Position numbers and translations under genes: made by a program. Shown here in pieces: positions 18,245-52,651 of a DNA stretch of 64,000 nucleotides (within the stretch, counting starts at the first letter, position 1; each line of letters opens with the position of its first letter). Origin of the DNA: Nemertoderma westbladi (lineage: Eukaryota > Animalia > Xenacoelomorpha); NCBI GenBank assembly GCA_032718475.1, contig JAUCBJ010000701.1:7624-71623 (forward strand), read 5' to 3'. The notes under the pieces were generated by a model. The model had not been told where the DNA came from. It worked only from the letters and a program-made list of their open reading frames with translations, and ran no database searches.

Positions 18245-21200
18245 ATGGCGGATGCTGAGGAGTTATCCCGAAAAATTACGCTCAAGAGGCGGCGTTCGAG
18301 CCACAGCAACAATCGCACTTAAAGACTCTGACGATATGGAGTCTTTCAATATCGGGAGAAAAATGTCTCAGGTGTCAATCTTACAGGGCTATGTCAATCG
18401 CTTAGACGAAATGGACATTGCAATTTGGGCAATTATGGACGAAGAAGACGCGACATACAACAATCAATGACGTACAAGGTTAAACTCACAAACGCAATAA
18501 CTCAGTTACAACTGTCATTATCAGAAACAACTTTATCAGAAACTAGAGTAGAACAAGATACCGGTGGTGCTGCAATTGAATTACCCTCTCATAGAAGTAG
18601 TTTTTATGCTAATAGTAGTAATTATGCTAGATCTGTGTTACCTAAATTAGCCCCTCCAAAATTTTCTGTAAATTTATTAGAATATTGCGGGTGGCGAGAT
18701 TCTTTTCGCTCCGCAATTCATGATTCTGGATTACCAGACGTATTAAAACTACAACATTTAATACAAAGTTTAATTGGTGAAGCGAAAGAAGTAGTAGCAG
18801 GCGGGACTTTCAATATTGTCTGAAAATTATAAGGTAGCAATGGATTTATTACAAGATAGGTACGGTTGTACGGTACGGTAGTACGGTGAAGGTCGTATCA
18901 TACAAGCACACATCAATAAACTGAGGAACATTAATCACATATTTAATGGTAGGAAGTATACATTAAGGCAGGTGTACGATACTTGCCAATCACAAATACA
19001 AGCTTTGGAAGCATTAAACACAAAACCAGAGTCATATCAAATTACGGTTATCCCTGATATTATGGGTATATTACCTTTCGAATTCGGTGCAAAACTTTTA
19101 GCAAAACAAAATAATCATATAGATGACTTGTTATGGTTAATGGAGCAAATTGGGTTACAGTGCAGAGGCAATTACCGAATTCGTAAACACAAATACAAAT
19201 AAATCAAATACTCAAGGTGCACAAAAACAATTTAAACCGCAAGGTGGCGACAAGGCAACAGCAGCAGCTTTAGCAATAGGTGTAAAAGTCCCAGAACACC
19301 AACAAAGAGGGCCAAGTCACAAAAGTTCTAACCAATCCACATCTACATCCCAAAAACATTATCAAACTCAAGCAACACCTAAACCGAACGCATTTTGTCC
19401 GAAATGTGTATATTGCGGTCAATTACAGTTTTCAACTGACTGCCAACTTATCAAGGGAGTTTCGCAAAGAAAAATTGCACTCGATGAAAAGAATTTGTGC
19501 TACAATTGTCTACTTCCCGGACATCAAGCAAAGGATTGCACACGTAGAAAGCCGTGCTACACCTGCAAAAAATTAGGCCATCATAACTCAATTTGTTTTC
19601 GTTTGCAACACAATACAAATGCAGGAGCATTTAAATCAAATACAACACACAACATGTTAGCTACAATGGCTCAAACGCCTTACCAATCAAACGATGAACT
19701 CTGCAGAGAGGAGCATAAAGATACTACAGCTATGTTATTACATATGTACAATACAACCGCCAGACCTTCAAATGCCTTACTTCAAACCGCGACTATTGAC
19801 TGCCAAACAGACCACAATGGTATAAGCAAAACAAATACATTTTTCGATTTGGGGAGTCAAAAGTCATTTGTTATCAACAAGTTTGTGAAGGATAACAACT
19901 TACCGATTATAGGAAAGGAAAGTATTAGTGTAAACGGATTTGGTGGTAAGGAAAGTGAATTTACATCTCTAAATGTAGCTCAAATTACCCTAGTTATGAA
20001 GGACAACTCGATATTTACAATGTCAGCATTGGTAGTAGACACAATTTGCAATCCAATACACAATAACATTCCGTTAGAAACATATGCAAAAATTCGAGTT
20101 TCATTTGAATCAATAGAATTAGCGAATTCTTCGTATAAACAATCAACACAAGAATGTGTGTTTCCGGTTCAACTCTTAGTTGGAAGTGATTTCTACTGGG
20201 AAATAGTAACTGGAAGATCAATTAGAGTCTCTAATACCGGCCTTGTTGCATTCGATTCTGGAGTAGGTTGGTTACTTTCAGGAAACACTGGACAATTACA
20301 CAACAATGAAATTGCATTATGTGCAAATAACTCACAACAAGGTAATATGTGCATGCTTGTTTCAACTGTGGAGGTCGATTCCTCTAACAATAGCAAGAAC
20401 AACTCAACAGATGTACTAGCGACAATTTTAAAAGCATTTTGGTCTTTAGATAGTATGGGTATTTGTCCAAAAGAGTGCCATAGTGAGCGATCAGCAAATA
20501 TAATAGGAACATATACATTAGAAGAAGGTATGTACTCAGTCAGTTTACCATGGAAGCTGAATCCCGATCAATTACATGATCATTACAATATGTGTTTCAA
20601 GCAATTGTTATCATTAGTTAAACGGCTACAGAAATTAGGGCTTTTGGATCGCTATGACAAGGTAATTAAACAACATTATGCGAAAGGGTACATAGAAAAG
20701 GTGACGGTTGGGGAAGTAGAACACAATAGTTCAGGAGTTCATTACATTCCACACCCGGTGGTGTAAGAGAAGAAAAGGAGTCAACAAAACTAAGAGTAGT
20801 TTATAATGCCTCAGCGTGAGTCAACCCCACTGATTTGTCATTAAATGATTGTCTCATTCGCGGTCCCAATCGCCTTCCAAATTTGGTTGGAAACCTTTAT
20901 CGTTTTCGTCTAAATCGCATTGGACTAACCGCAGACGTGGAACAAGCCTTCATGCGCTGCAAAATTAATGAAACAGATAGAGATTGTCTCCGTTTCCTTT
21001 GGGTCAGCAACATCAATGATAGTAAACCCTTGAAAATTCAAGCATATCGTTACACACGTGCAGCATTTGGGTTGACATGCTCTTCGAACATTTTGTCAGA
21101 AATAATACAACACCATTTAGACATAGAATTAGAAGCAAATAAAAACCAATTTCAGGTGATAGAAAAATTAAGAGAGTTATATGTAGATGATTTGAATTCG

Positions 21201-22503
21201 GGAGCAGAAACAGTAGAATAAGGTATTCAATTTGTTATAAGCGAGACAAATTCTTGGCCGAGGTGGATTTAATCTCCGCAGAAGGATAACAAACTCAGAC
21301 CATTTACAAGCACAGTTGCAGGACATATCAATTAGCTCAACAAAGGTTGACCAAACCAAGAATAAAACTGAAGTAAGAGAAGATGATGAAACATATGCAA
21401 AAGTGGCAATGAATCTTCTAAATCTTCAGACAGAAAAGGTATATATATGTTTATTTGTTTGCGCAATAGTTTGCGCCATCCATTTAGAGTTAGTGTATGA
21501 TTTAAGTCATCAATCATTCATAGCCGCATTCCACAGATTTATAGGTAGAAGAGGGACACCATCTCTAATCTTGTCGGATAATGCTAAGACATTTAAAAAG
21601 TCATGGAAAGAAATCGAAGCAATACAAAAGGTCCAAAAATACAAAACAGTTATTGATGAGTTTGGCAAATTAGGCATTGATTGGGAGTTCAATGTTCCTT
21701 TAAATCCTGCAGCTTATGGTTTCATCGAGCGTTTAGTAGGAACCATAAAAGGGTGTTTGAAGAAGGTTATCGGACGAAACATCTTGATGTATGAAAAATT
21801 GCAAACCTTCATGGTGTCCGTAGAAGCCTCAGTGAATAGTCGTCTGTTAACCTTTGTATCAGATGATAACAGTGACAACTATCAGTGCTTAACTCCAGCA
21901 CATTTCTTAGTAGGTCACAGGTTATGTGCTGCCCCTTACACAACAAAAAGGTTAAACAAAAGAAAACAAACTAATTATAGCCTAACCACAAGATTGACGC
22001 GCCAAGAAGAAGCTGCTAATGTTTTTTGGCGTAGTTTCAATGAAGATTACATAATGGAGTTAAGAGAGCAACACAGAAAAGGAAATTTAGATCCCAAATC
22101 CCCAAGGATTCCGAAAAAGGGGGACATATGTCTATTGGTGGACAGACAGCTTCCACGATGCATGTGGAAATTATGTCCTGTGGAGGAGATGATAATTAGT
22201 AGAGATGGTAAATGCAGAGCAGTGAAAATTACAGTATGCGAGAGAAAGAAAGAATCTAGGTCCTTAACAAGGTCTGTGAAACAGATCATTCCATTGGAAA
22301 TAACAGACGATGATGAATTAAAAAATATAAACCTAGAAAACAAAGACGCCGGTGAAGATGTCAAATCAACCAAGGACATCATACAACCACATGATAAAAA
22401 TGTTATAAAGACAAATCAATCAGATAAACATAACATCGTTCATCCAAACCGTACACGTCTATATCTAACTCGAGCAGCAAAGGTTACTCAAATAAATAAA
22501 TAA
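18245..22503 (+). pseudogene. BEL/Pao gag-pol pseudogene (gag, zinc knuckles, protease, RT, integrase; RNase H region deleted)
   Basis: LPKLAPPKF..KLQHL..SL.GEA; LCYNCLLPGHQAKDC; FDLGSQKSFV; SLNDCLIRGPN...ADVEQAF; LYVDDL; AIHLELV...SDNAKTF...FIERLVG. Multiple stops and frameshifts; no 3' LTR. Confidence 0.92.
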
Positions 22504-22619
22504 AAGGTTTAAAAAAAAAAAAAATTCAAAAAAAGGTGTTGTTTAAAAATGCAAAATTTGTAAGAAAATTAACTAATTACTTTCGTAGGAATCGGTGCTT
22601 GATATGTACAGTATATTTA

Positions 22620-24800
22620 GTATTATTATTATTATTGTTTATTTCAGGCTATACGGCCCATAGTAAAATATATATATATATACACTAACACAAATGATAC
22701 AAGACATATTAGTAATATAATTAAATAGCACATATTATTATCCTAACTAAATATTCTACTGTATTGGTGACAGAAATTAAATGTAGTACTTAAAATATCG
22801 TTATTGGATTTAGATACTCTTCTCTCGAGACTACCCAGAGACGCATGATGAATGTGTACGAACATTGGTAGGTTGAGCCGACCAAATGTCAATGACATGC
22901 TCGTCGGTTCATCATTAGTCATTCTAGGGACATTAAATAATAAACGAACATCATTGTTATATGCAACCGATAGCTTATTAAACACTGCACCAGTATAATT
23001 ACGCCGTGCCCACAATGCATTACAATACACTGGTGTTATGTAAGCTTTAAATAAGCACTTTTTAACATTATCTGAGCATCTTCCAAATTTTCTAACGAGC
23101 ATATTCGCCCTAGCGTATATCGAGCACGTCTGTGATTTAATATCAAAGTCATCATCCGTACTACAATGCAACCAGTGTCCTAGGTACTTGAATTTTTCTA
23201 CTATGTCGATTGGTCTGTTATATAGATAGACCCTACCTACTTCCAAACCTTTGCAACATTGAGGCACATAATATAAACATTTAGTCTTTACTGTATTAAA
23301 CAAAATTGAATTAGCATTTGCAAAAGATACTGCCTTATTAATTAGTATTTGCAGGCCAATCATTGAGTTTGACAATAAGCACAAATCATCTGCGTACATG
23401 ATATGGTTTATACGTAAACCTCCTAAACAACAACCTACACCCGTGTCAGTGAGTTGTTTACTTAAACCGTCAACGTATACAATAAATAATGTCGGGCTTA
23501 ATAAACCACCCTGGCGGGTACCGTTAGATACCGTAAACGTTGAGGATTTATTTCCATCCCAATTGACACACATTTGCTGCGTCCTATACCAAAAAGCTAA
23601 CAACCGTACAATATATACCGGGAAACCTAACGCCAATAATTTCTTAAAAAGTTTAAAATGGTTTACTCTATCGAAGGCTTTGGAAGCATCTAACATACAC
23701 ACAAAAACCGGTGTGTCATTGGCAAGATAATAGTTGATTAATTCCTTCAATGTATATACACATGTTTCTGTACCTAGTCCCGGTTTAAACCCGAACTGAT
23801 TACCTCTAGTCGCAATATAATTATGACACCTACTAAGTAAAATAATTTCTAGAATTTTACTGAGCACCGTTGACAATGCGATACCTCGATAATTGTCCTT
23901 AGACGTTACATCACCAGTACGGTCCTTTAATAAAGGTATAATAATACTTAGCATTAAACTTTCAGGCATGTATCCATGTATAAGAATTGAATTTACTAAG
24001 ATACGTAATTTAGTTAATAAAGAATAACACAAACCATAATATAAATGCTCACTTACTAACAAATCAGGGCCATATGATTTTCCTAAATTTAGGTTATTTA
24101 TCGCGTCAAATAACTCTTCTAGAGATACTAGCTTAATATCAGAGACACGCACCTTAGAAAACTCGTGCACAACGAATGATTTATCGTTGTCATCATTAAC
24201 ACAATTGAAGACAAAATGAAAATGTTTTTTCCACATTTCTGCAATTGCTTCTGCACCAGATTCACCTCCTACCACATTAGGAGTAGGTGAACGAGTTTTA
24301 GTACATTTGTGTACTTCCGACCAAAAATTAGTCGTCCGTCCACTTCCAGTACTAAGCAATGACTCTGCAAGTTTGTCATTTCTATGTTTATTTTTGTCCC
24401 TTTTGCACGAGCGCAAAACCCTTTTGAAGTTGGCCCTTGTGTGCAAATAAACAGCAAGCAATGGTCCCTGTTTTGGAGAACCAGCTGATTTCCAATTCAA
24501 AAACGCTTGCCTAGCTTTATTGTGCACCTCTTTAACTTGAGAATTCCACCCTGGAATATGGTTCCATTTATTATTCGTGTTGTTTTTATTAACTTTAAAT
24601 GAACTATCACTTGCTGTTTTCAACCCCGTCGCAATCGTCTCATAAAGAGAGTCAATTGCTTCTTCGTGTTCACCGCAATGTGGGTTGCAGCAGTTACTTA
24701 ACAACTCCTCCGAGGTTGTACCCACACTAAGCAGTTGTTGTACTAAATTACAATAATTTTCTATCTGATACTTTTTTACACTTTCCCAACATGGAGTATT
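22620..24800 (-). mobile_element. 5'-truncated L2/Daphne-type LINE with open RT frame (22743..~24800)
   Basis: YRGIAL, QFGFK, LDASKAFDRVNH, GTRQGGLLSPTLF, YADDL, KYLG, RANMLVRKF; AATAAA and (TAA)n tail at ~22620-22643. Confidence 0.92.
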
Positions 24801-24809
24801 ATCCACTCC

Positions 24810-25430
24810 ATGTTGGGAACATATATGGTATCCATACTTATCCATACTTATATGGGACTATGGGAGATTTCAGCTAGATATTCTGATGCTATTGGTCTTA
24901 GGTATTATAATGGGTTTAACTTAACAGCATCAGAAGTAAATTCATTGTGGTATGAATGGAATTATGAAATTAGTAACGAAGGTGTCTTTTCAGAGCTAGA
25001 CACGAGCAATAAAGCTTTATCTAACCGACTTAAAGTAAAAATAAATGTACAAGAAAAAAAAGTAATTTTTACAGACAAGGAAAGCAAATATTTACAGTTA
25101 CATTATGATAAAGACATACCACATATAGAGTTTCTCAATGATATGATGGAAAAGGTTTCATCAACTGATATAGCAGACGGTTTCGCGATTTTATATCAAC
25201 CAACTTGGAAGTTTAAGGTTAATAAGTCATTTCCAGAAACAGTTTCATCCATATTTAATCCAAAGACATACATCGAAGAGACATCGAGTGATAGAAAGCG
25301 CAGATCTACGTCTCAAACATCTTCCAATCCCAACAATGATTCTATACCTACAAAGAAAAGAAAAGTTACAAAAGCAAGTGAAGAGGTAGCAGATTACAAT
25401 AAGGAACATATAAAAGCAGTATCAGATTGA
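24810..25430 (+). CDS. Polinton accessory ORF, N-terminus weakly PC4-like; basic NLS-like C-terminus
   Basis: 206-aa ORF upstream of pPolB containing I.TY.G...I..R.....G.....GFNLTASEVNSL, plus RKRR and KKRK. Confidence 0.45.
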   Translation: MLGTYMVSILIHTYMGLWEISARYSDAIGLRYYNGFNLTASEVNSLWYEWNYEISNEGVFSELDTSNKALSNRLKVKINVQEKKVIFTDKESKYLQLHYDKDIPHIEFLNDMMEKVSSTDIADGFAILYQPTWKFKVNKSFPETVSSIFNPKTYIEETSSDRKRRSTSQTSSNPNNDSIPTKKRKVTKASEEVADYNKEHIKAVSD

Positions 25431-25984
25431 TTTATTATTAACTAGAGACTTTTTTTTTCAGTTTCACACTGACTAGTAAAGGTAACTTTTTAACATAAAG
25501 CATAATTATTATAAAGTATTTGCATGTAAAGGTGACTTTATTGAGTAAATATTGGTGATAGTTTATATTTAATGTGAGCATGGGATTAGGTATAAAACAT
25601 TCGCATGTAAATGCATGAGTTTACCTGATATTATAATAAAACATTAGCATGTAAAACCTACTTTATCAATGAAAATTAAAAACGCATTATGCACATCTTG
25701 GTTTAGACTTGATTTTATTATAAAGAATTCAGTTGTAAAAGCAACTTTATTTATGATATTAGTTTCCAATGTAACTGTTATTTATGATTGGTTGGTATAA
25801 GTAGAAACTTGAAATATATATAAAGAGCTCAACTGATTCAATCGAGCTCATTCTGAAAATATTAAATTAATTAAAGTTTAGATATTATATCTTATTTGTG
25901 TTGAGTAGCTTATGAATTTTTTTTTTGATTATATATATAACAATATTCATATTAATTTTAAATTATTTTTAGGATAATAAAGAG

Positions 25985-28900
25985 ATGGATAAACAATTAA
26001 AATGTCCATTTTGTCCTCTTCAAATTTCTAAACGAAATTATTTAACTCACTTGAAATCACATTTTCAAGAATACAATTGTTTTAATTGTCAAGTGAAATG
26101 TTCACGTGAAGAAATTTGCAAACGACATGAATCAACTACGGGTTGTAAAGAAATGAAGTTTTGCGTGTATGAAAAAACTTCCCTACTTGTAATAAAGAGT
26201 ATTTATATGAGAATTATTTACGTCACGACTGTCACCAACGTTATTATCATGTTAGACCACCACGACGGAACCAAAACAATACTGTCGCATCTAGAAAAAG
26301 ACTGAAATCTGGTCAAGGTCCATCAATTTTTAGCCTCGAACGAGCCGCACATGATAACCGTTTAGAAATCTATGTTTACAATCTTCCGAATGATGAAGAT
26401 TTTCCTGATATTCATTCATCGATACTAAAAATTCTGCCTCATATTGAAAAGTTATTATTAGGAAAACTTAGCGAAATGAATGTACTTAGACCCTGGCTAG
26501 GTGTGAATATATTCATGTATCGATCACATTTTTCAGAGGGTGACCAAGAAGAAACTTTCTATTTTAGTTCTTCAGGTGGTGCAGTTAATACCGTAGATTC
26601 ACATGAAAGTTTCTATATTTGGTTTGAGTATGTACTAGAAAAATTAATGCAAAAAATGGCCATGTTTAACACTCGTGGCTCAGGGTGGCGCGTTGAATCT
26701 TTATTAAGAGTGGAAATTAAAGTAGCTGAATCCAAGTCTAAGTCACTGGAATATAAAGGTCATGGTTATATGGAGTTACCTAAGGCTCTATCGAGTAAAC
26801 GATGTGTTATAAATATACAAACGACTGATAATGACTGTTTCAAATGGGCTATTATAGCCACAAAGTTTAGCAGGAAAGTGAAGATAAACAAAAACCGTAC
26901 TTCGCAGTACACAGATTACATGAATCATTTTATTTTTGACAACGGGAACAAAGATTATCCAACAGAATGGCAGCTTGCAATTAAACTTTTTGAAAAACAG
27001 AATTCAGCATATATAATTAATTTATTACTCTACGACAACAATCGAGTATCTATATTAAGACAGGCACCATTTAGTAAAATCACTCCAGATAAAGAGTTAT
27101 TGAATATATTACTTGTAAAAAATAAGAATACGAGTAAACAATCACATTATGTTTGCATAACTAACTTGAATCGTTTGATGAATACAAGAGGTAAGCATAT
27201 TAGATGTAGGAAATGTTGTGAACGGTATTTGTCTCATTTCTATAGCAAGGATGTTCTAGAATTTCACCGTCTTGCTTGTTATCGAGGAAAAAGTCAAGTT
27301 GAGAAGCTACCATCTGAAAAAAGAACTCACATTAGCTTTAGAAATTTAGACAGAACATTACCAGCATTGTTTGTAATATATTTTGACATAGAATCTATTT
27401 TGGAGCCAGCCAGCAACAGTAAATTTATTCAGAATCATATTCCATGCGCTGTAAGTTATTTAGTTGTCCCTAGTAGCGAATTAATCAATCCACCAAAATT
27501 TTATTTGAAGACCTTTACAAAAACAATCGACAACAACTGTATTCAAGACTTTTTAGACTCTGTATATAATGACATCACCCAATTATATAAGTGGTCAGAA
27601 ACTCACACGAGAGAGAAGATGATACTTAATGATGTAGATAAGTTAAGTTTTTGGAAAGCTAAAACTTGCTTTTATTGCAATGTTTTATTTAAGGATAAGT
27701 CTGAGAAAAACAAACATCACTCACATATTACTGGTAACTATATAGCAGCCGCTTGTAACGCATGTAACCGCTCTTTATCGTTGAAACGACACATGTATAT
27801 ACTTACTGCACACAACTGCAATCACTACAATTTGCATTTTCTTTTACAAGTTGGGTTTACCAATAACAGATATTCTGATTGGGATATAAAGGTGATCCCT
27901 AAAAATTCTGAAAGGTATATTTCACTAAGTATACATATACCGGTGAAAGATCAAAAAACAATAATCGAGCTACGTGTCTTAGACACATATCAATTTTTAT
28001 CCTTTTCCCTAAGTACTTTAGTTGATTGTTCAACAAAGGATATAGACAGCGAGGATATAACATCAGTTCTACCAATTACTGAACAGCAAATGAAATATTT
28101 TTATCCGAATTTAAATAATGCAACAATTAAACGAAAAGGTATATTTCCCTACGAGTATCTGACAGATTTAAATAAATTCAATGATTCGAAATTACCATCA
28201 ATAGACAAATTTTATAGTAAATTAACACAAAATACCTGTACACCCGAGGAATATAGTTTTGCCAACGCATCATGGAGTCAGTTTGACTGTTCAAATCTCA
28301 AGGATTATCTTTTAGCATACTTAAAACTCGATGTTTGTCTCCTCGCTGATATATTTGAGAACTTTAGGAGAGTATGTAGACAACACTATGAATTAGAAGT
28401 AGTTTATTATTGCAGTATCGCAGCTTTCACTTATGATTGCACCCTGAAATACAATAAATGTAAGTTAGCATTAATAAAAGATTACCAAACATATAGAGAT
28501 TTTGAAGCATCTATTAGAGGAGGGATTTCATTCTGTCGAAAGCATTACATAGAATCAAATATACCAGATACTGATAATTATGATCCAAGCAAGGAAGAGT
28601 GTCATATTTTCAATATAGATTTTAATTCCTTGTATTCGGGTAATTTAAGTAAAAAGCTACCTGTTTCAGGTTTTGAACAACTCAACGTTACATATTTAGA
28701 GAATGCTGCTCCAGAAGAACTAATAAACTATTTAACAAATCTTGATACTGAAGGAGATATTGGGTTTTTCTTAATTTGCGATTTGAAATATCCCAAAGAT
28801 ATTCATGATCGTACATTAGAACTACCCTTAGCCCCAGAACATTTAAGTATAAATGAGACAATGCTTTCACCATATATGAAAGATCAATTTAATAATGTAT

Positions 28901-29925
28901 GTAAACAAAGAGGTACTAATAGTAAGTATAAGATGTGTGCACCATAACTTATGTTGACACAATTCGATAAAGAATTCTATCATGTAAATTTAAAACTGTT
29001 AAAATTTTATATAAAACAAGGTTTAATTGTTACTAAGCTCCATAAATTGTATTCTTTCCATCAAGACTTTGTATTTAAACCCTATATAGATTTTAATATT
29101 AATCAAAGACGACTAGCAAAAAGTTACATTGAAACAGCTGTCGCAAAGCTGCTTAATAACTCTTTATTCGGTAAGTCAATAGAGAGGATACGAGATCGCT
29201 GTAATTTCCGTATCGCGAATACCAAAGTAAAATGTGATCAATTGGTGAAACGTATAAATCACGAAAATTTCATGATTTATAACAATTCCTTATTGGGACA
29301 CTTATTAGTGAAAGACAGCGTGACACTAGATAAACCAGTCTATGTAGGTAGTACTGTCTTGGATTTAGCGAAACTTGATATGTATGAGCTGTACTACGAT
29401 AAATTACTACATATTGAGAAAGAATTAAACTGCCGAATTGAAATTGTAGCATCAGATACAGACTCATTAATAGGTTGTTATTATAATACATCGCAGAGTA
29501 ATTTCTTAAAAGCATTAATTAAAAATAATATTTTAGATACCTCTAATTACCCCAAGGATCACCCTCTCTACAGCGATAAAAATAAATCCAGACTCTATTA
29601 CTGTAAAGACGAGTTGTGCTCACGAGAGATTAAACAAGCAGTATTTTTACGTCCAAAGTTATATTCAATTTTGGAATGGAATAACAAAAATGTTCGTAGA
29701 GCGAAAGGAATAACAAGAGCTGTTGTGGATAAAAAAATTTGCCACGAAGATTATTTAAGAGCATATAAGGATAACGAAGAAATTTCCAAGGAAACGCATC
29801 AATTTCAGAGTCAATTACACAAAGTGTACACTGTAGCACGAGATAAGTTTGTTCTCAGCGCATTTGTCGATAAACTTTATTGGGTTAATAAAAATCATTC
29901 ACTTCCCTGGGGTCACTATCAAACA
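25985..29925 (+). pseudogene. Protein-primed family B DNA polymerase (pPolB), disrupted
   Basis: N-terminal zinc fingers; Exo motifs YFDIES, AHN, YLKLDV; EndoVII-like HH..TG....AC..CN insert; KGIFPYEY; IDFNSLY; KLLNNSLFGK; SDTDS; AKG; LPWGHY. Frameshift before ~26305 and TAA at 28945-28947. Confidence 0.95.
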
Positions 29926-29979
29926 AAGGTTGTAAAACCAATTAAAAAAAAAATATACCTATTTATCGGGAGCCAAACA

Positions 29980-30522
29980 ATGAACTATCAGATAGTTAAT
30001 AAGAATGTAAGTTGCCAGCAAGTGTCAGCGATTAATTTGAAAGAATTAAAAAATCAATTATCTGGCAAACACATACTCAAACCAAATCAGTTTATATATA
30101 AGATATTTGGTGCCATATTATTAATATTTAAAAATGGTCGTATTACATTATTAGGTAGTAAGTATAATTTCCAAAAAGTAAAAAAGCATGTATTTGATAA
30201 AACAAGTATTAATTTGATTTTAAAATCTATTAATTTATGTACTTATATTTTTAGAGTCTATAGGTTATTGATAAACAATACCGGGTTTTATGTTGTCTTT
30301 GATAATGTACAACTTCAAGTTATATATGAACCTGAAATTTTTAATAATTGCAAAATAAGAATAAATAATACCGTAGTCATTTGCTGCTTTCATACCGGTA
30401 AATGTACTTTAATGTGTTCACCTAGCAAATTTCACATTTATTACCCTATATTTAGTAAACTGGTTAATTATTTATTAATGTTTGGTGTTGTGACTTTAGG
30501 TGTAGAATATATTGGTAATTAG
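29980..30522 (+). CDS. TATA-binding protein (TBP)-like protein, in frame with the pPolB C-terminus
   Basis: 180 aa with two TBP half-repeats: IVN..VSC...INL..L, LLIFKNGRITLLGSK, YEPEIF, CFHTGKCTLM. Confidence 0.8.
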   Translation: MNYQIVNKNVSCQQVSAINLKELKNQLSGKHILKPNQFIYKIFGAILLIFKNGRITLLGSKYNFQKVKKHVFDKTSINLILKSINLCTYIFRVYRLLINNTGFYVVFDNVQLQVIYEPEIFNNCKIRINNTVVICCFHTGKCTLMCSPSKFHIYYPIFSKLVNYLLMFGVVTLGVEYIGN

Positions 30523-30662
30523 AAGGTGAAAATTAAACATTATTATTTTTCAATCGATCTATCGGTAGTTAGGGAAAACTAACCTCGTTTGAATAAGCAT
30601 GACTCTCACAGGCTGACTGCGTGCCTAGCTGACAGTAGCTGCGAGGCTGACTGCGTGACTAT

Positions 30663-31562
30663 CTGCGAGGTTGACTGCATCCCAGCAGCGTGGGTGACTG
30701 CGCACATATCTGATTGTAACTGGCTCACGATATTGTATACATTGGCTTAGTTTGTTACTGCAGGTACTGTTACATTAATACTGTAGTACCAGTACTGCAG
30801 TACAATGCTAATAGAAGGAAATCAGTATGCTCTATCTGACTATACTGTTACAACAACAGTGAAAGTACTGCAGTACTGTATTGTTTGGGTAGGTGATCTA
30901 ATCCCTGTATGTGAGACCCATGCGTGCAATCCAGGTCATGACTGCAGTATGCTAATCAAGGTTCGGGTAGACTGCAGTATCCTTATAGGTGAAAAAAAAC
31001 AAATGCTATTGCATCAGATTACTGCTGTACTGATACCGGTAGACCGCGACTACAGTGTTGGAAGAGTAAAACACTACCGGTACTGATAAAGTGGATGACA
31101 GTTGTGGATAGGGGCTGCGAGGTTGACTGCATCCCTGCAGGGTGGCTGACTGCACACACATCTGATTGTAACTGGCTCACGATATTGTATACATTGGCTT
31201 AGTTTGTTACTGCAGGTACTGTTACATTAATACTGTAGTACCGGTACTGCAGAACAATGCTAATAGAAGGAAATCAGTATGCTCTATCTGACTATACTGT
31301 TACAACAACAGTGAAAGTACTGCAGTACTGTATTGTTTGGCTAGGTGATCTAATCCCTACATGTGAGACCTATGCGTGCAATCCAGGTCATGACTGCAGT
31401 ATGCTAATCAAGGTTCGGGTAGACTGCAGTATCCTTATAGGTGAAAAAAAACAAATACTATTGCATCAGATTAATGCTGTACTGATACCGGTAGACCGCG
31501 ACTACAGTGTTGGAAGAGTAAAACACTACCGGTACTGATAAAGTGGATGACAGTTGTGGATA
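30663..31562. repeat. 452-bp tandem duplication in the Polinton convergent intergenic region
   Basis: Two near-identical units starting at 30663 and 31115. Confidence 0.9.
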
Positions 31563-32056
31563 AGCCTATAATAAATTATTGAATTTAACAGTACCGGTAC
31601 CAACAGGTTAACATTACATCATATACAGATTATGTTGCATTTCTGACTAATATTACTAAAGTTATATCACTAGTCAACTACTGTATGTGTTATTAGTTTG
31701 CGATGTATAGGATGTTTCGCAATACCATTACAACTATATTAGAATGATATCGAGAATACTTACTGTACATGTTACGTCTATATCATATTGTTAAATGTGT
31801 ATGGTTTACCTAGCGCAATTGATTCTTTTTTAGAGAACTTGTTGTAAAAAAAATTATATTTTATTATATTTTTATATTAACATCAAGATCATCACCAAAA
31901 TAAAATTATATTATATCCCATCACATTAGAAGCTTAGAGTAAACCTACTGTACATCATTCACCGCAGTTATTTCTTTCTGTTTATCACCTGTCTCAGTTA
32001 ATCGCTTCATTACATACCCTCCAATCCTTTTCGCTGAGCAGTAATTCAAGCAGCTA

Positions 32057-32512
32057 TCACCATCGAAAACTACATTTATCTTCTACAGTAGTTAATTTAT
32101 CGTGGAAGGGGCATGGAGTTAAATAATTGTAATATAGTCGAAATATTCCCAATTTGTTCATCGATTTTGGAGCGTAAACATCAAGTTGGGTATTTAATAT
32201 TGCGGCTTTCATCAACCCGAATACATATATATTATATTTATTTTTTAATTGTCTCTTCATGTACTTTTTAAAGTCATCTTGCGAAATGTCACCGTAATCC
32301 CAAGGTAAATGCGATGTAATATTGCGTAAATTGTTTACGTGGGCTTCATCTAATGCCGATAAGTTAATATCAGGAGGTCCTTTAATTAAAAACGTCTTTA
32401 TATTAGTTTTACTGTATTTAGAATCGAATATAGCAAATTCTTTAAATACTACCGGATATTCCTTATTGTCTATCTTATAATATTGAAAATCAACAAAAAT
32501 AATATTATCCAT
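32057..32512 (-). CDS. Polinton accessory protein, DEDD/RNase H-fold exonuclease-like
   Basis: IFVDFQ...VFKEFAI...FLIK.P...LPWDYGD...IYVFG..K, plus a C-terminal CPFH. Confidence 0.6.
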   Translation of the reverse strand: MDNIIFVDFQYYKIDNKEYPVVFKEFAIFDSKYSKTNIKTFLIKGPPDINLSALDEAHVNNLRNITSHLPWDYGDISQDDFKKYMKRQLKNKYNIYVFGLMKAAILNTQLDVYAPKSMNKLGIFRLYYNYLTPCPFHDKLTTVEDKCSFRW

Positions 32513-32556
32513 TTTATCGAATAATATATTTAGATAAACAAAAGTTAAATGATTAA

Positions 32557-33012
32557 TTACAACGCAAGTTGGTTTATTTTATAATAATTAACAAGCCATT
32601 TATATAATATTATTTCATTTATTTCCAAATTATTTGTAAACGCTGTTATTGGATAGTTTGTGTGAATTCGATTTACCAAGTAATAAAGACAGTATAACCC
32701 GCATGTGGTCCTTCTAGGGTCTTGAAATTGCCTGCGAGTAGTACACCACCTTGCTGCTGAATTTTTCTCAAGCCATTTTTCAATACATCTGTTTGGATAT
32801 TTTGGACCAAACGAATTAAATAATTCAGCTTCATTATCTCGTATATATATAGCCACCCAATGAACACCTGGTAGATGCGCTTTATCGGTATTTACTATTA
32901 ACCCATAGTCTCTTCGCTTATTATTATCTAATTTAGGTAATTTATTAGATGGAAACGCCCCCAAATAGTGACCACCCACTGGAAACATATCAAGGTCCTC
33001 TGTAGATAACAT
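32557..33012 (-). CDS. Adenain-like (Ulp1/C5) cysteine maturation protease
   Basis: LIVNTD...PGVHWVAI, FNSFG, Q.....TCGLYCLYYL. Confidence 0.93.
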   Translation of the reverse strand: MLSTEDLDMFPVGGHYLGAFPSNKLPKLDNNKRRDYGLIVNTDKAHLPGVHWVAIYIRDNEAELFNSFGPKYPNRCIEKWLEKNSAARWCTTRRQFQDPRRTTCGLYCLYYLVNRIHTNYPITAFTNNLEINEIILYKWLVNYYKINQLAL

Positions 33013-33014
33013 AC

Positions 33015-34274
33015 TTAATCGATATGTATTTCTTTCCTGCTATTTAAACTTAATGATTGATCATAAATATTAAAAACGATTACATTTATGGTCTCAACCA
33101 ACGGTTTGGCAAATCTTAATTTTAATTGTCCGTTAGTATATATTGATGGTTGGGGATCCCTAACATAACCGTCGGCAGTTAGGTCTCAGGATATGAGTGG
33201 GCAATTACCTAAGTAGGTTTCATGGTCTATATTATTACCTCCATAACCGTTAATATATGTATTAATGTTCTTCATTAATTGAGTATACTCAAAAATAAAT
33301 GTTCCATCTGTAAAATTAGGCTCGTATATTACACCACCTACTGGAAGACTGTCTACAATCAGCTCCGCGCGTTTAAGGTTAAAATGTTCAAATTTCAATG
33401 GGTTACTAGTTAATTCTCCCGAATATGAATTATTTGTTATAAAACCGATAATAACTAATTTGGGTTTTTTACCATCAAATATGTTTGTTTGGGTGTAATT
33501 TGTGGTTTGAGCGGGAATAGTAAATGTAGTAACCTCTTTTTTTTGAAATTGATATTCAATATTGTAGCTCTCTAAACCTTTTAGATGGCTGCTTTCTATT
33601 ACTGGATTAACCTCCATTCTAGGGATTAGGATCTTTACTTCATCTAATTCTAGCCGAAGATTTGTCACAGCGTTTGCGTTTGGAGTGATTTTAAAAATAA
33701 ACGAATTTGATACTTTTCTAAAATGCATTCTTAAATCATACCCCGGTTGTATTATTTTACTTTCAGTATCAAAATCTATCATCAATCCACTTACAAATTG
33801 CATTTGTTTACTAAAGGCATCGCCAATAGGATGCGCACCGGGATTAATTTCATTTCCGTGTTCGGATAAAGGCTGACGAAAGCCGCCTGCCCCCAGTAGC
33901 CCATTTTTTGTTTCGTATGTTGTAAATAGTAAATTGGATAAGTACGACTTGTAGAAATAATGGTTATTGCTATTTTCAACCTGCTTCTCATTAAGGTCTA
34001 TTTTAATATCACTCCACATAGTTCCAGAAGGGTAATTCAACATATAAATATGTGAGTTTTCAAGTCGTCTATCCTACTGTACAGTACATTTTGTAATTAA
34101 TAACGCATCTTGCAGTTTCGTATAGAATTCATTGGATCTCGGTACAAGAAACGTGACTTCCCTAGACTCGCTTCTGAGATTAGATACTGGGTAAATTGTT
34201 TCATAATGCTTTGCTTTAAATTCAGTCTGCATTGGCTGTGTAGAAAATAAATCTAATTCCTTAATAATTGACAT
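33015..34274 (-). pseudogene. Polinton major capsid protein (double jelly-roll/hexon), disrupted
   Basis: ELDLF..QP.QT, LNEKQV...Y.YKSY...LL, PK.VIIGF..N..YSG...NP..FEHFNL; C-terminus DLT.DG...LRFAKPL in another frame ending at TAA 33015. Confidence 0.85.
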
Positions 34275-34276
34275 TA

Positions 34277-34840
34277 TTAAAAAATACTTTTTTCGCAGTG
34301 TTTCAGTTTGCCTTTTTTTATTTTTCTATTTTTACTATGACGATGATGTATGTTCATAGACATTGGTCTAGTCGGTCGCTTTAAATCTCTATAAACTTTT
34401 TCTACAACTGATCTTGTTGATGGTTTCATTTTATTTAATGCTTTATTAATAACCGTATTAGCCTGCTGATGTAAGACCCGCTTACCTTTTGGTATTACGT
34501 ATTGTCTCATAAATTTTGTGGTAAATGGTAAAGCTTTTTGTAAAACGTTTTTTGCTAATGGCTTTCCAAATTTTTTCAATGTAGATAAAGCGTCTGTAAA
34601 TATACCTTCTCCGTGTTGATTTGTCCGCATACCTCTGCGATAACGTTGAAATCGACGTTGTTTTAAGTTTGGACCAAATGCACCAATTTGTTGACCGTAA
34701 GGGTCAATATATGATCCACCTCGAAAAACAGGAACTTGCGTCGAGCCTCTCGTACTTCTACCACCTTTAAAAACAGCAAGATTAGAGTCTGCACCGCCAT
34801 ATTGAGGTTTACTGTATCTTTGAAATAAATCGGAATCCAT
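34277..34840 (-). CDS. Basic core/membrane-active virion protein with adenain-type Gly cleavage motifs
   Basis: QYGG, PVFRGG, QHGEG followed by amphipathic IFTDALSTLKKFGKPLAKNVL; Arg/Lys-rich; lies between penton and hexon. Confidence 0.65.
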   Translation of the reverse strand: MDSDLFQRYSKPQYGGADSNLAVFKGGRSTRGSTQVPVFRGGSYIDPYGQQIGAFGPNLKQRRFQRYRRGMRTNQHGEGIFTDALSTLKKFGKPLAKNVLQKALPFTTKFMRQYVIPKGKRVLHQQANTVINKALNKMKPSTRSVVEKVYRDLKRPTRPMSMNIHHRHSKNRKIKKGKLKHCEKSIF

Positions 34841-34844
34841 TTTA

Positions 34845-35683
34845 ATTTATTTTTTTAAAGTGTAAGGTAATAGAAGTTGTACCGTATTCAAAATTCAAAT
34901 CTTTTCCTTCTTTGTCTGTTATTTCAATATGAATGTATGTTATCTTATATGATTTTTTTTACAGGGATATAATGAATTGTATCCTTGGCAAATTCTTTAT
35001 TTATTACACTACCATATTTCACGTCATCAGGTATCGCCACGCGACGAAGTAAAGCTAAACCAAAATCATTAATATATTCATTCAATCATTAATATATTCA
35101 TCGACTTAGGTTCTGGAATAGAATTGGGTGGTTGAGGACATAAAAATACCCTCTGGTAAGCTTTTTCTTCATTTCCGATAATCTTTATTAAATAACCCTT
35201 TATATTATTTTTCGTCTTCAAAATAATTTTAAAATTTGGATTTAAATTCGCACCGAGATTATTTTCAGTAATTCCAAAATAATAGGCTAATTGTTGACCT
35301 ATAAATAACTCTCGTACAGTTTTCCCTAAAATAAATTGCAACCTATTTTGCTGAGTATTTTCAACTATTTGTAATTTATCTTTCAACGCCCCAGTATTAA
35401 AATAATCTATAATGTCATTAATACTGTAGAACAAACCGGATGGAAGTGTATCCTCAAAATTTTTTTTCCCTTTTTTTAATAAAATAACATTCTCTACATT
35501 GTTATACATGGATGTTAACGTGGCTAAGTAAAATATACTTTTTATACCTACCACCCAGTTTTCGTTTGGATTTATAGGTAAGGCACCATGGAAATTGATC
35601 TGATAATTACTACCGGTATTACGGGGAAAATCAATTGGACACGAGTTACTTGGTAGCCTAACATAGAATTCATCCATCTCCAC
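34845..35683 (-). pseudogene. Minor capsid protein (penton) paralog 2, frameshifted
   Basis: FYVRLPSNS...FP.N..S.Y...W.VG; C-terminus ALLRRV...HYIPV...IHIEITD..G..L.F..G...ITLHFK in shifted frames. Confidence 0.8.
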
Positions 35684-36539
35684 CGCATATTAACTTAAGT
35701 GTTATAACAGTGCGACCACCGTTGAAATTAATTAATTCACCTTGTCCGTCACGTAAAGTAATTAAGATTGTTTTTAGTTTTTTATTCAACAATGAGTAAT
35801 AGCAAATGCTCTCGTATTCGTGATTAATATATTTTCGATTTAATTGTGTTAAAGGACAGGTTCTTAAGAGCGGAGCTAAAGCATCACCAACAAAAGAGCT
35901 CTCAATAATATCTGTATATATGAAGATTGTATCTTTATTACGAGTAATATTCGTAGGATCTGGAAAATCTAAAATCCCAATTTCCGAAATTTTTGGTCCA
36001 CTATAATTTAAAATTAATATCGGCTGTTCTATATTGCTTAATTCATCCACTGTAGTGGTACTGTATATATCCCAATTCGGAATACCTGGATGATTCTGAT
36101 CCAATAACTGTTTTAAGCCTAGAATTTGTATTAAATCACCGCGTAGACTTAATTGTATTTTTTTCAACTTTTTAGGAAATTTAAATTTAATTCTAGAATT
36201 ATTTGTATTAAAAATGAATTCGAAATCTCTATATTTCGCTTCAGAATTAAACAGTTTATTTATATCATCAATAATGACTTGAATAGAGCTATGCATACCA
36301 GGAAATAAACTGTATAATTTGGCATCTTTTGCATCTACCCCGATTGACAGTGAGATTTGAGTTTGCAAAGTAATATTACTGTATGTTGCTTGATATTGAA
36401 TCTCGGCAAGTCCAATTTTAGCGTTTGAACCAATATATAATTCTTCGGCTAAATCAACAGTAAACTCGCTAGGGTTATTATTGGGATATGTGTTTAATGA
36501 GCTATCTGAAACTAGAGTGATATATGTATCTACAGCCAT
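35670..36539 (-). CDS. Minor capsid protein (penton) paralog 1
   Basis: YITLVSDSS...YPNN.PSEFTV.L...IGLAEIQY; IFIYTDIIE...VGD..APLLR; ITLRD..GE.I.F.GG...ITL.L. Confidence 0.88.
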   Translation of the reverse strand: MAVDTYITLVSDSSLNTYPNNNPSEFTVDLAEELYIGSNAKIGLAEIQYQATYSNITLQTQISLSIGVDAKDAKLYSLFPGMHSSIQVIIDDINKLFNSEAKYRDFEFIFNTNNSRIKFKFPKKLKKIQLSLRGDLIQILGLKQLLDQNHPGIPNWDIYSTTTVDELSNIEQPILILNYSGPKISEIGILDFPDPTNITRNKDTIFIYTDIIESSFVGDALAPLLRTCPLTQLNRKYINHEYESICYYSLLNKKLKTILITLRDGQGELINFNGGRTVITLKLICGGDG

Positions 36540-36551
36540 TATTATTATTAT

Positions 36552-36975
36552 TTAAGCTCTCTCTGCTTGACTCCATTGTACATACTGTACTGTATAATGT
36601 TAAACTATAGACATCTGTGACCACGTTCATTGTTTCTACAGTATATGCGAGAGATCAATATTTAAAGCGAATGAACTATAGATATTAGACTTACAGCATA
36701 GTAATATCATTTGAGTTAATATTGATTAATTACGATCATATGTGACCATTATTCGCTTAAGCTCTCTCTACTTGACTCCTTATACATACTGTATAATGTT
36801 AAATTATAGACATCTGTCACTGCGTTCATTACCACTTCTACAGTATATGTGAGGGATCAATATTTTACTAGCTTTATTTAAAGCGAATGAACTATAGATA
36901 TTAGACTTACAGTATAGTATAGTAATATCATTAGAGTTAATATTGATTAATTACGGTCATATGTGACCATTATTC
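36552..36975. repeat. ~205-bp diverged tandem duplication upstream of the penton genes
   Basis: ttaagctctctct...atatgtgaccattattc repeated at ~36552 and ~36757. Confidence 0.8.
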
Positions 36976-37009
36976 ACGCAATGAATCAATATACAGTATA
37001 AACCTAAAC

Positions 37010-38015
37010 TTATTGAATATGCTGTACCCACGACTGTTTTTTGGATCCAATGAATCGGACTAAATATTCTTTTTTCCCATTGCGCACACGTTCTTTAAGT
37101 TTGCCAATATTTTTGTCAATCGGAAGATAAATATTACTACTCGGGTGGACCTTTTGGAGTTCGTATGAATAAAATGAACCATTTATTATAGCACCAGCGC
37201 TGTCCTTAATATCGAACATTACCGCTGGTACTCTATCCAATCTGACCCAATGAATAATAAATAATTCATGTGTCCATTGTTCTCGATAGCCTTTAGCAAA
37301 AGCAGTACACGCGATAGATAAACGTACTGTATCTCCAACTTGAAATTTTATTTTCTTGTGATTAATCTGTCTATATTTCCCATATAATCTATTAATTAAT
37401 TCAGTTTCATTAAATTTATTAACTTCAATGGGAGTCATTTGTATAGTCCTATGAAATGACCTATTATAAGCAAAAATAAGCTTCGGTAAAATTTTTATCC
37501 AAACATTATTTCCCCGTTGCGTGAAAATTTTGAACATCTTTGTTTTTAATGTTCTATTGAATCTCTCGACAATAGCCGCCTTATTCACAGAGTACATTAC
37601 GTAATAACGTACACCAATAGTATCTAAATATTTTCTTACAGATTTATTTAGAAACTCAGACCGCGATTCTGTTTGGTTTACCTTTCTGGAATATATTTTG
37701 CAATATACTAATAATTTCAATACCTGTTTTTGTCTTCATACCATAGGCAAAAGCAAGCCGGCTAAAGGCATCACTACATGTTAATATATAGTTATAATTA
37801 TTATTTTGTGATTTATATTGCTGCATATCCACCAGATCTATCATATATATATCTTTTAACCCTCCCGTAAATATTTTAGATGTTGGATAATGATGTCTAC
37901 GTGGTGCGTGAAGGGAGTATGTCTTTTGCCCGCTCAACCATTTCTGAGCTTGAGATGGTTTGATGTTTGCGGCTTTTGCTAATTTTGCGATACTTCGGAC
38001 ACTCGTAGCGCCTGT
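37010..38015 (-). pseudogene. Polinton retroviral-like (rve) integrase with C-terminal chromodomain, frameshifted
   Basis: WLSGQKTYSLH.P, IDLVDM, YILTCSDAFSR, SEFLN, KAAIVERFNRTLK, F.KGY...WT.E.F, EYLVRF.G....WV. A small deletion removes the second catalytic Asp region (~37660). Confidence 0.92.
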
Positions 38016-38359
38016 AAAATAAAGGATTGTGATTGGATGCAGTACTAGCGTTGGGTGACTAATAACGCCTCTAGCGGAAGATGCGGGAACATGAGAAGTT
38101 ACCATGGTTACGGTTGAAATGCTGGCATCTGATTGGATGAAATAATAACGACCACTGGTAAAGGTTGAAATGGTGGCTTCTGATTGGATGCAGTACTAGA
38201 AATGGATGGTAATGATGGGCTATGGGTGACCTTGATGCGAGGGACTACAAACATATACTACTGGTTGAATCTCTCAAGTATATAATGCGGTATGTAAGTA
38301 TCTATCTATTACAAAAATTTGTTCCACCACCATGCAACCTTCAATTGGCTTACTGTGAA

Positions 38360-38562
38360 GCAGCATGCAAAGAATGATATGCCGGGTTAAATACTGTGCA
38401 AAATTCCACCGCCGCAATTCCCTATCCCCATAATTATCAGCATCTCCAAGGCCAATGTCCTTTAAGAGGCGTCTTAAGAAAGTCATGAGGTGTCAAAGCG
38501 CAAGATTGTGCACAGACTCGCTGGTACTCACGGCGAAAGCAATGTCCTGCAAAGCGGAGGCG
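38360..38562 (-). mobile_element. 3' fragment of the same RTE LINE family as 5882-6566
   Basis: Shares cacggcgaaagcaatgtcctgcaaagcggaggcg (RLRFAGHCFRRE). Confidence 0.8.
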
Positions 38563-39621
38563 GTATATATATATTACATGTATATTTATAGTATACATGT
38601 ATGTATAAATGAGCATCACATTAGAAAGATTCAGTTTCATATCTATGCAAGAGTATACAGTTTATAAAAGTATAGGCCTACTAACAGTATATCACTTGAA
38701 GTAAAAGTGACTTATTCAACATGCTATTCATTACAGTAGGTATAATTATATAATCGGCTCCTTCCTTTTTTTGAAGTAAAGTAGTGCATAAAATGTTTCT
38801 TATAATTTTTTAATTTTTAAATAAATTTTATTTTTGTTACAGCTGGGAAATGCTATTTATTATGGATGGAGTGAGTGTGGGGATTCAACTAGCTACAAAA
38901 TTCAGGAGAAAACGAAGGAATGCTACCTAGAGAAAGATATCATTATACAGTACTCCCACTCTGTAATAATTAACTCTAGACTTATCTATTTAACTTTTAC
39001 GTTAATGATATATTATGTATTTCCTATTTGATTTATCTCCTTGTTATATTTCTTTCCATGTTTCTCATGTTCGGTAAATTCGCTATATTTTTGGATAAAA
39101 GTAAGTAGTGGTAATATTCAATATAAACTCGTAGTCTTATTTCAACAAATGTTTGTTTTCATGTTCAGTTGATTTACTTTTGCTGCAATCCTGTAGTTCA
39201 CAAATCGTTACACTAACAGCGGTGCCAGGGGGGGGGGGGCATTTTGCCATATTATCATTTAATAGTGAATGATTGACAGCTATTCAGCAGTGGTTAAATA
39301 TTCGTTCGAAATTATATATTTGAACCACACTTTTAGTTCAAGCACAGTTCAAACCAACAGTTTTGAACGTTGGAAGGAAGCATTATTGAACCTTTTCAAA
39401 ATATTAAGCCGTTCAAAAGGAGTTCGTTAAATAATTAGTTGAACGGACCATTTTAGAACGAATATCTAACGTTTATAAGATGACGTCGAATCAACGTTTT
39501 GTGAGCGGGACAAATCCCTTCCTAGATGAACGTGTACAGTGAACGCACCTGGAACGTTATCAGAACAACGTTATCCACGTTATTAGAACTATCTTAAACG
39601 TGAGGTGAACGTTGGTGTGCT

Positions 39622-41967: not shown

Positions 41968-43234
41968 ACACGTTCGTGGGGCCTTCGCGCAGCACGAGGC
42001 CCAGTTATGAGATACAAATTAAAATTGTGCGACTGTATCACAAAATCAGGTTATGAGAGATTAACCGACACCACCAATTAATCAAAGAAAGGGGGACAGT
42101 ACGTGTTCACCCGTTTTAATCTGCACCCCCCCCCCCCCCCTCCCCCCACCCACCAATACATAACCGCGACATCTACCACCCACGGAAGGGTAGCACGAAC
42201 TTATTTCCAAACGCACGTTCAATATGCAAAGCCAGGTGGTTTATAGGAATATAATCAATGCAGTACTCGTCTTCATTATAAGCCTCTTTGCGTTCGACCT
42301 GTTTTGTATTAAAATATATTTATTAAACGCAGGCTGACGCTCTTTATAATAATAATACCTAGGGTTGCCAGCTTCCAGACTTTCAATCTTTACTGCCGCG
42401 CAAACCTGCTGTTGCTGTGCAAGTGCTGAAGTGCTAGTTGCCACCGGTCAGCCGGTACCGGTAGTAGGGTGGTACCTACGGTGCGCACTACAACGGCAGT
42501 ACAGCAATACGGTGTACCGTGCCAATGACTGAATGATTAGCGGTAACTATCTAAACTATTATATTATTATTACCGGTGCCGGTACTGGGCTAATTAGGCC
42601 TAAACTATAATCACCGCAAGGGTTGCCGGGGCCATGTTTAATTAGATTACATGATATGGCATGTCTGCAGTGTATGGTACCGGCTGACCAGTATTGCAGT
42701 ATTGACTGATTCCAGGAATCTCGATTCAGGGATTGAGTACAGCCTGACAGTACCGGTACACATGGTACATGCAGATTGGCAGAGAGCCCCAATGTATTGC
42801 AAAATTTGTCAGAAACCCAGCTGATTTATCCTACAGTAATAATAATTTAACGCATTTTAAATTTGGATAAATAAATTTATTATAACTGCAATAACAGTTA
42901 CACTGATGCTGCACGAAGGCCCCACGCAAATTCTAATTGGAAAATTTTCAAACTTTTGCCAAACAACATGTGTACCAAGTTTGGATAGATTTCATCAAGG
43001 ATTGGCCGAGTTATTAACGTTTAAAATAAAATACTGAAAAAAAAACGCGACAGAACGACAGGTTGATTAATGGTACCCCTACGCTAAGGCTCACTCACTT
43101 CGTGGCTCTCCCCACAGGTTGATTAATGGTACCCCTACGCTAAGGCTCACTCACTTCGTGGCTCGCCCCACAGAACGACAGGTTGATTAATGGTACCCCT
43201 ACGCTAAGGCTCACTCACTTCGTGGCTCGCCCCA
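41968..43234 (+). mobile_element. Helentron/DINE-1-like non-autonomous element
   Basis: Starts acacgttcgtggggccttcgcgcagcacgaggccc (hairpin); catgtgtaccaagtttgg, gacagaac microsatellite; ends in three ~56-bp terminal repeats ...gctcgcccca. Confidence 0.65.
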
Positions 43235-46037: not shown

Positions 46038-46248
46038 TTAAAACCCCCATAGCGAGAATGTTAGCGACAAGTTTTAATTATTAACTATATTTCGTAAGAT
46101 ATATTTTAAAACATTTATTTATTAATAATGCAATAACTGAATAACCAGATAACGGAAAGACAAACTGAATTGAAACTTTTAATTACTAATAATAATTGTG
46201 GTGAGAGGTGATTGGAAATCAAGGATATATGATATGTTATGGTAGGGA

Positions 46249-48579: not shown

Positions 48580-48650
48580 GGCACACAGGCAAATGAATTG
48601 ATGTCTGTTGAGATGTATTGAAGGAGCACTATTCCTTCTACTAGACTACT

Positions 48651-49395: not shown

Positions 49396-49599
49396 TTTTT
49401 TAACAGCAATCAGACAACAGCTCAGCCTACAAATCGTCTGTACAATCTGATCAGGTTTACACGCCTTCTGTTCAATACTGGCCTACAAACAAATAAAACT
49501 TGACAGAAATAAGTAAAAATCTCAATAAAAAACCAGGGCTGCAGTCCCTGATTAATTATTAAGGCCTACCGGTATATAACTATCAAAATCGAATAATAC

Positions 49600-52287: not shown

Positions 52288-52605
52288 AGGCCACAGGTTC
52301 TTGAGATATGGAGAATTAATTTCAAAGACAGCTGCCATTTTATTAGCCCCTGATTTTTTATTATTGATAGTAACAATGTGTTGGCAAGCTGTATTTTTCG
52401 AGGTGTTTGTTATTATACATTTATTATAGGAAGGGATCTAGGGGTCGTAACCTCGAATGATAAGTTTATTTTACCGAAAATAACTTATCTTTTATTGGCG
52501 CAATTGTGGGACTAATCCCATCACATGCGTACTTTTTAACCGGGTAGTGTACAAATTTAGAAATCGCGTTATTTTTCTTGAAATTAATATCTCATATCTC
52601 TCCAA

Positions 52606-52648: not shown

Positions 52649-52651
52649 GTC

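Follow-up and report, generated by a model that had tools for sequence, protein, structure and literature searches.

The window analysed here, a stretch of 64,000 nucleotides from the Nemertoderma westbladi contig JAUCBJ010000701.1 (positions 7,624 to 71,623), contains a Polinton-type element that spans about 24.85 to 38.5 kb and is arranged in two converging gene arms. The plus-strand arm consists of a gene remnant, the gene for a protein-primed DNA polymerase B (pPolB) and a TBP-like open reading frame (ORF). The minus-strand arm carries a candidate integrase gene, two penton-like genes, a pX-like gene, a probable major capsid gene, an adenain-like protease gene and a small ORF. The features, in window positions, are as follows.

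24846..25430, plus strand: remnant of an element gene (3′ part, with two basic clusters), its left side cut where a LINE reverse transcriptase frame begins
25506..25830, plus strand: intergenic region before the pPolB-TBP arm that holds four TATAAA(A/G) boxes and a 37-nt repeat present three times
25985..29979, plus strand: broken pPolB gene with a Cys/His-rich start and 45 relatives
29920..29979, plus strand: stop-free linker of 20 codons between the pPolB motif GHY and the TBP ATG, as read in the sequence
29980..30522, plus strand: TBP-like ORF with two lobes, 180 aa, without an N-terminal extension
30611..31414, no strand assigned: repeat block between the converging arms, with a 300-nt pair spaced 452 nt and shorter 31-nt units
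32057..32512, minus strand: small ORF with no profile match
32557..33012, minus strand: adenain-like cysteine protease gene (PF00770, 23.5 bits versus a cut-off of 21.3)
33016..34274, minus strand: probable gene for the major capsid protein, named by position and interrupted by two in-frame stops
34277..34840, minus strand: gene for a basic protein with Gly-Gly sites
34846..36539, minus strand: two tandem genes, the second frameshifted
36536..36985, minus strand: segment of about 220 nt duplicated in tandem, between the integrase gene and the first penton-like gene
37010..38105, minus strand: retroviral-type integrase gene, frameshifted and with an uncertain start (PF00665, E = 0.01, under the cut-off)

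Besides the TBP-like ORF, only pPolB and the protease have firm matches among the genes of the element. The 45 relatives of pPolB (best E = 7e-75) include 14 that are marked PF03175, and the gene is broken by a frame change near 26.2 kb and an in-frame stop at 28945-28947. The candidate genes for a double jelly-roll capsid protein and a penton have no profile match and no PDB sequence match, and their names come from position and presumed resemblance: we take the N-terminal pattern of the 33016..34274 product to be of the major capsid type and the tandem genes at 34846..36539 to be penton-like. The basic protein encoded at 34277..34840 is presumably pX-like, and we assume the small ORF at 32057..32512 to be nuclease-like. 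The gene remnant at 24846..25430 has no Pfam match and no ESM Atlas match above 0.78.

With seven frame breaks in 9457 nt of genes other than the TBP-like ORF, this copy of the element is decayed and probably inactive. A search of the element in six frames found no P-loop motif of a packaging ATPase, in a copy that is cut by other elements. Likewise, no inverted repeat among those listed within the window flanks the element as terminal repeats would, and its ends seem to have been replaced by insertions: a LINE reverse transcriptase abuts the left edge, and another repeat starts near 38516.

Several further features were observed in and around the element. To its left, 18332-24857 holds a broken BEL/Pao retrotransposon on the plus strand and, on the minus strand, a 704-codon LINE reverse transcriptase frame. 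Such neighbors presumably indicate an animal host. Three frames separated by stops at 15821-17587 have no Pfam match and are, we assume, DNA-transposon transposase-like. The region 41968-60505 contains many long inverted repeats (92-100% identity, up to 596 nt), which probably represent a young non-autonomous repeat family. Within the element, the repeat block at 30611-31414 has contig cover like that of the rest of the element and many joints that show length variation, and short repeats spaced 51 nt, with CCAAT on the minus strand, lie around the integrase start (38017-38208).

The TBP-like ORF extends from an ATG at 29980 to a stop codon at 30520-30522 and forms the final 180 codons of an open frame (28948-30522) whose first 344 codons encode the C-terminal part of pPolB. 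An earlier note on this DNA had placed the ORF at the end of the pPolB frame; this position holds, although pPolB itself is interrupted by the stop at 28945-28947 and by the frame change near its start. The same note had recognized both TBP half-repeats, and Pfam bears this out with a match of PF00352 to the 180-aa product in two stretches (E = 1.7e-9; 37.9 bits versus a cut-off of 22.9); all four motifs quoted there are found in the translation. Two TBP models of NCBIfam also match the ORF at E = 3e-4, far below their curated cut-offs. TBP clusters are its best matches in the ESM Atlas (0.94-0.95), with a recognition value of 2022 that falls short of the 2300 mark and is weak taken alone.

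A profile of 120 retrieved TBPs, from which the query was left out, scores the ORF at 27.6 bits versus −0.4 bits for the reversed sequence, and the best of 1000 shuffles reached 6.3 bits against the same profile (899 of the 1000 were reported). The frame stayed open in none of 20000 base shuffles, and the remaining five frames across the ORF contain between 13 and 27 stops. Third-position GC of the ORF (0.22) lies within the range of the other element genes (0.21-0.29). The ORF had been described as being as AT-rich as the element, but it is richer in AT (GC 0.25 versus 0.325). Its ATG has a purine at −3, as do eight other element starts examined. We conclude that 29980..30522 is a real, divergent TBP-fold gene carried by a Polinton-type element.

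Many of the residues on which a TBP depends for DNA binding are retained. The Phe residues of the intercalating type, previously counted as at least three, are indeed kept and number four in the alignment (F38, F50, F121 and F137), where the pairing of F38 with a conserved TBP Phe depends on a 3-residue gap after F38. Both central Asn (N7 and N85) and several basic DNA-facing residues are kept as well. Other residues stand in place of both central Thr and of the Pro-Gly that follows F121, and some Val positions of TBP carry polar residues in the ORF; we take these Thr, Val and Pro-Gly positions to be base-reading ones. The YEPEIF loop is kept, with E117 and E119 aligned to the TFIIB-contacting glutamates. 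G59, E117, P118, E119 and F121 are the only invariant columns across a 124-row TBP alignment, whose rows were partly picked by the E-P-E-x-F motif. Passages of PMC7221094 identify the two C-lobe glutamates as the TFIIB contact and report that the first of them is kept in about 40% of viral TBPs.

The first lobe is reduced. Its helix H2 segment has 20 residues in the ORF versus 28-35 in 12 of the 14 comparators measured, which leaves it eight short; it is a 9-residue helix in the structure model and retains five basic residues, and is thus not a full-length basic H2. The first-lobe stirrup and S3-S4 loop are also shortened. According to PMC7221094, TFIIA, TAF1, Brf and Mot1 contact TBPs at basic residues of N-lobe helix H2.

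The structure model of the ORF, built from the 124-row TBP alignment (pLDDT 77.7, pTM 0.60), has a fold that begins at residue 4. As the earlier assignment had predicted, this alignment-built model matches 38 TBP entries with Z between 10.0 and 11.8 (157-171 residues aligned, rmsd 5-7 Å), and the next unrelated entry has Z = 6.6. Among the Foldseek matches listed, every one at E < 0.001 contains TBP. Residues 81-100, the expected first helix of the second lobe, have a pLDDT of about 54 and are not helical in the model. A single-sequence model made without the TBP alignment gave a pLDDT of 35.3 and no fold match, and the saddle-fold model therefore leans on the TBP alignment.

Compared with 14 eukaryote-like TBPs, whose mutual identity is 33-68%, the ORF reaches 21-29%. 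Its end branch measures 3.98 changes per site versus a median of 0.49, and groups only with another long branch, in a 32-row tree that comprises 22 of the 120 retrieved proteins and nine locus TBPs and is without animal TBP, TRF2 or the host’s own TBP. Placement of the ORF among the eukaryote-like rows was not rejected (p-AU 0.45). A common origin of the ORF and the TBPs of large viruses finds no support in the tree. The objection that the ORF might group as a host TBP retrocopy does not hold for a recent one. Because of its distance from TBPs in identity (21-29%) and in branch length, the ORF is, as judged from sequence, no recent host retrocopy.

Close relatives of the ORF were not recovered in any of the collections searched. 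A word search confirmed 0 of 82 candidates, phmmer against 1.84 billion representatives returned none at E = 0.001, and searches of viral contigs confirmed 0 of 31 and 0 of 19 stretches. Plasmids and phages yielded one chance match each (E of 7-10), and the best TBP in a sequence search of the PDB had E = 0.14. The pPolB alignment confirmed 0 of 77 stretches in viral contigs. The sole metagenome match to a 20-nt pattern was rejected as a chance match, lying in a bacterial receptor gene (contig L001). Among the viral contigs, L018 has a eukaryote-like TBP gene adjoining a large capsid-like gene (4326-6404), and L003, L004, L010, L012, L013, L016 and L025 have acidic archaeal-type TBP genes, which served as comparators here.

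To place the ORF within the element family, we used contigs from four public runs of one organism, which come from three studies and contain 0.13-0.42 of the sampled window words. No RNA run is among those listed as containing such words, a result that carries no weight for or against expression. Across 24500-38700, all 30 bins are covered by contigs in all four runs. The summed depth over the ORF in X1 (18,679-25,267) lies within the range of the pPolB bins (18,469-40,717), depth not being equal to copy number; a contig from the flank of the element has a depth of 102. That contigs of three studies cover the ORF along with the viral genes supports its membership of a Polinton element family. 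At one site within the ORF, a different letter occurs in 7, 8, 7 and 1 contigs, and several versions of the ORF therefore exist. One contig, which covers the first 333 bases of the ORF over 352 places, differs from the window in 13 letters and has gaps that total 12 letters (a multiple of three). Near 30254, three contigs from a different study diverge from the window sequence; some copies of the ORF therefore likely differ in length there by whole codons. None of the contigs listed spans the pPolB-TBP junction with 31 letters on both sides. The intact frame in the window is itself no sign of selection, because a 543-nt gene escapes breaks with a probability of 0.67, as calculated from seven breaks in 9457 nt of other element genes.

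The suggestion that the ORF product recognizes the element’s own AT-rich promoters finds no support in this copy, in which no common box precedes the seven structural and integrase genes. TATAAGA occurs within 150 nt before one of the seven (0.30 expected, P = 0.26), ATAAAC before one and TATT(A/T)AA before none; TAAGA and TATAAAC are not enriched before them, and no 5- to 7-mer is common to the seven upstream regions above chance. The power of this comparison is low, because a single decayed copy with tightly packed genes was available. In the duplication at 36536..36985, which lies before the structural cluster, TATAAGG is present in one of the two units, and the gene-proximal unit differs there; we regard this as a weak hint. 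Before the pPolB arm, TATAAA(A/G) boxes occur at 25510, 25591, 25719 and 25819, four versus 0.8 expected (P = 0.006, uncorrected and with the boxes partly being copies of the repeat), again a weak hint. The region 25506-25830 is a candidate early promoter for host TBP.

To our knowledge, no switch for the capsid genes of Polintons has been established, and the assumption is that these elements rely entirely on factors of the host. We propose that the TBP-like product is the element’s own promoter factor and recruits host TFIIB and RNA polymerase II, a role that we consider slightly on the probable side given the sequence and the model. Translation would start at the ATG of the ORF itself, within the pPolB arm, and the protein would bind and bend AT-rich DNA via its four Phe and two Asn, with the changed base-reading positions moving its preference away from the host TATA box. 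The kept E-P-E loop would bind TFIIB of the host, the presumed partner because the portion of the element within the window shows no TFIIB gene: TFIIB has no match among the 26 frames scanned with Pfam, nor does the gene remnant at the left end match it. Since the element is cut on both sides in the window, a TFIIB gene could also lie in the missing part. The shortened first-lobe helix may weaken control by TFIIA, TAF1 and Mot1/BTAF1, and the targets would be the genes of the capsid arm, resulting in an early-to-late switch.

The residues that suggest a promoter factor also bear on other roles. The acidic loop is the best-kept patch of the protein, many base-reading positions are changed and this copy has no late box, as might be expected of a decoy that binds host TFIIB or Brf by the loop, or fills host TATA boxes, and thereby damps host transcription. 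However, real DNA binding fits a protein that still has its four Phe, both Asn and several basic residues that face the DNA, and a germ-line element would presumably gain little from a general shut-off; we consider a decoy improbable. The chances seem smaller still for a DNA-bending structural or origin-binding protein that has no part in transcription initiation. The ORF does adjoin a replication gene, and two of its first-lobe surfaces are shortened, but such a protein would have no need to keep the TFIIB-contacting glutamates at about 25% overall identity. Very improbable, in our view, is a host TBP or TRF retrocopy that the element captured and now carries as a decaying passenger with no function. 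It would account for an intronless ORF that the tree cannot place, with a eukaryotic origin at p-AU 0.45 and comparators that include no host TBP. Yet the ORF retains an open frame and functional residues at the end of a branch of 3.98 changes per site, and neutral decay of that depth would destroy the frame (0 of the 20000 shuffles stayed open); its cover together with viral genes in three studies also argues against a retrocopy.

A different question is whether the promoter factor would be a protein of its own. From the last motif of pPolB to the ATG of the TBP-like ORF the frame has no stop, and the TBP fold could instead be a true C-terminal domain of pPolB or a polyprotein part released by the element protease, an alternative that the earlier note left aside. 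Linkers shuffled with the same make-up are stop-free in only 18% of cases, and the linker of a fusion must moreover be in frame. Contigs show no indel at the linker among the best 12 of 132 indels (letter changes were taken as the best 40 of 1392), but the other known frame breaks are also absent from those 12. Against a fusion, PF00352 is found in 0 of the 45 long pPolB relatives, of which 44 reach the C-terminal motif in the alignment and finish 0-97 residues past it (43 within 49). The linker contains a ten-A run, the type of site where copies often differ in length, in an element copy that has seven other frame breaks. Because no relative is fused, the linker has this run and the ATG, with its purine at −3, stands exactly at the start of the TBP fold, we favor a separate gene and consider a domain or a polyprotein part unlikely. 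If fused, the TBP fold might anchor pPolB at AT-rich terminal origins or make late transcription depend on replication, functions to which we give little credence. That a single product might both replicate the genome and mark promoters for TFIIB and RNA polymerase II of the host, and so link late transcription with replication, is similarly doubtful; such a pPolB-TBP fusion would be an architecture absent from all relatives retrieved here.

In its pPolB, adenain-like protease, candidate integrase, probable capsid genes and converging arms, the element resembles Polintons/Mavericks (adintoviruses), from which this copy differs in being broken and in having no ATPase or terminal repeats found within the window. 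TBPs of viruses, including herpesviruses and large DNA viruses, are already known. For viruses related to Polintons, the literature covered here has a TBP only as a label in a figure legend. In PMC8502044, the legend to Fig. 5 marks a TBP-like gene for mid-size MELD viruses whose PolB is adintovirus-like. These viruses thus share with our element a TBP-like gene and pPolB, in a legend that belongs to a section on non-animal datasets and in text passages that give the gene no function. Section 3.2 of the same article does not include TBP among its listed Polinton/adintovirus accessory genes, and one searched file of its supplement has no TBP or TATA match. The literature on Polintons with TBP, TATA or TFIIB, taken with subscription papers, figures and preprint supplements outside its scope, yielded only PMC8502044 and the preprint label; PMC12220804 has no TBP passage, and a passage of PMC10675990 mentions TBP in mirusvirus-like elements, not Polintons.

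With the cellular TBP family (PF00352; eukaryotic TBP/TRF and archaeal TBP), the ORF has in common a two-lobed build, the four Phe and two Asn, and a YEPE-x-F loop in which both TFIIB-contacting glutamates are present. It differs from cellular TBP in its identity of about 25%, the lack of an N-terminal tail and its location in a mobile element, as well as in the shortened stirrup, S3-S4 loop and H2 of the first lobe and the replacement of Pro-Gly and both central Thr. That TBP homologs are known from large viruses, as the earlier note had stated, agrees with passages of PMC7221094 and with BFVD matches: in Foldseek, the ORF model matches giant-virus proteins in BFVD with E down to 2e-7 at 8-18% identity. 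Judged from those sources, the TBPs of large DNA viruses have divergent folds and have lost the regulatory surface of the N-lobe, as has the ORF. Large viruses mostly pair their TBP with a TFIIB of their own, according to the same sources, and none is seen in the far smaller, incomplete element here.

A functional parallel can be drawn with KSHV ORF24, a vTBP of beta- and gammaherpesviruses. In passages of bioRxiv 10.1101/2025.08.25.672222, the four Phe of ORF24 are required and the acidic residues are absent. As far as those passages go, both proteins combine a TBP fold with a virus that has no RNA polymerase of its own, and both keep the four Phe on a more polar DNA face; ORF24 is the model for late-gene activation. 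However, ORF24 is large, has extra domains, acts in a six-protein complex, reads TATTWAA and is without the acidic TFIIB residues, whereas the ORF described here is a bare 180 aa and keeps E117 and E119. If our proposal of a promoter factor is correct, it would support a staged, virus-like cycle of Polinton elements, and one small protein suffices to test it. A bare TBP with a host-TFIIB contact and a trimmed regulator surface would then represent a one-protein route to host RNA polymerase II, where herpesviruses use the ORF24 complex and large viruses a TBP-TFIIB pair.
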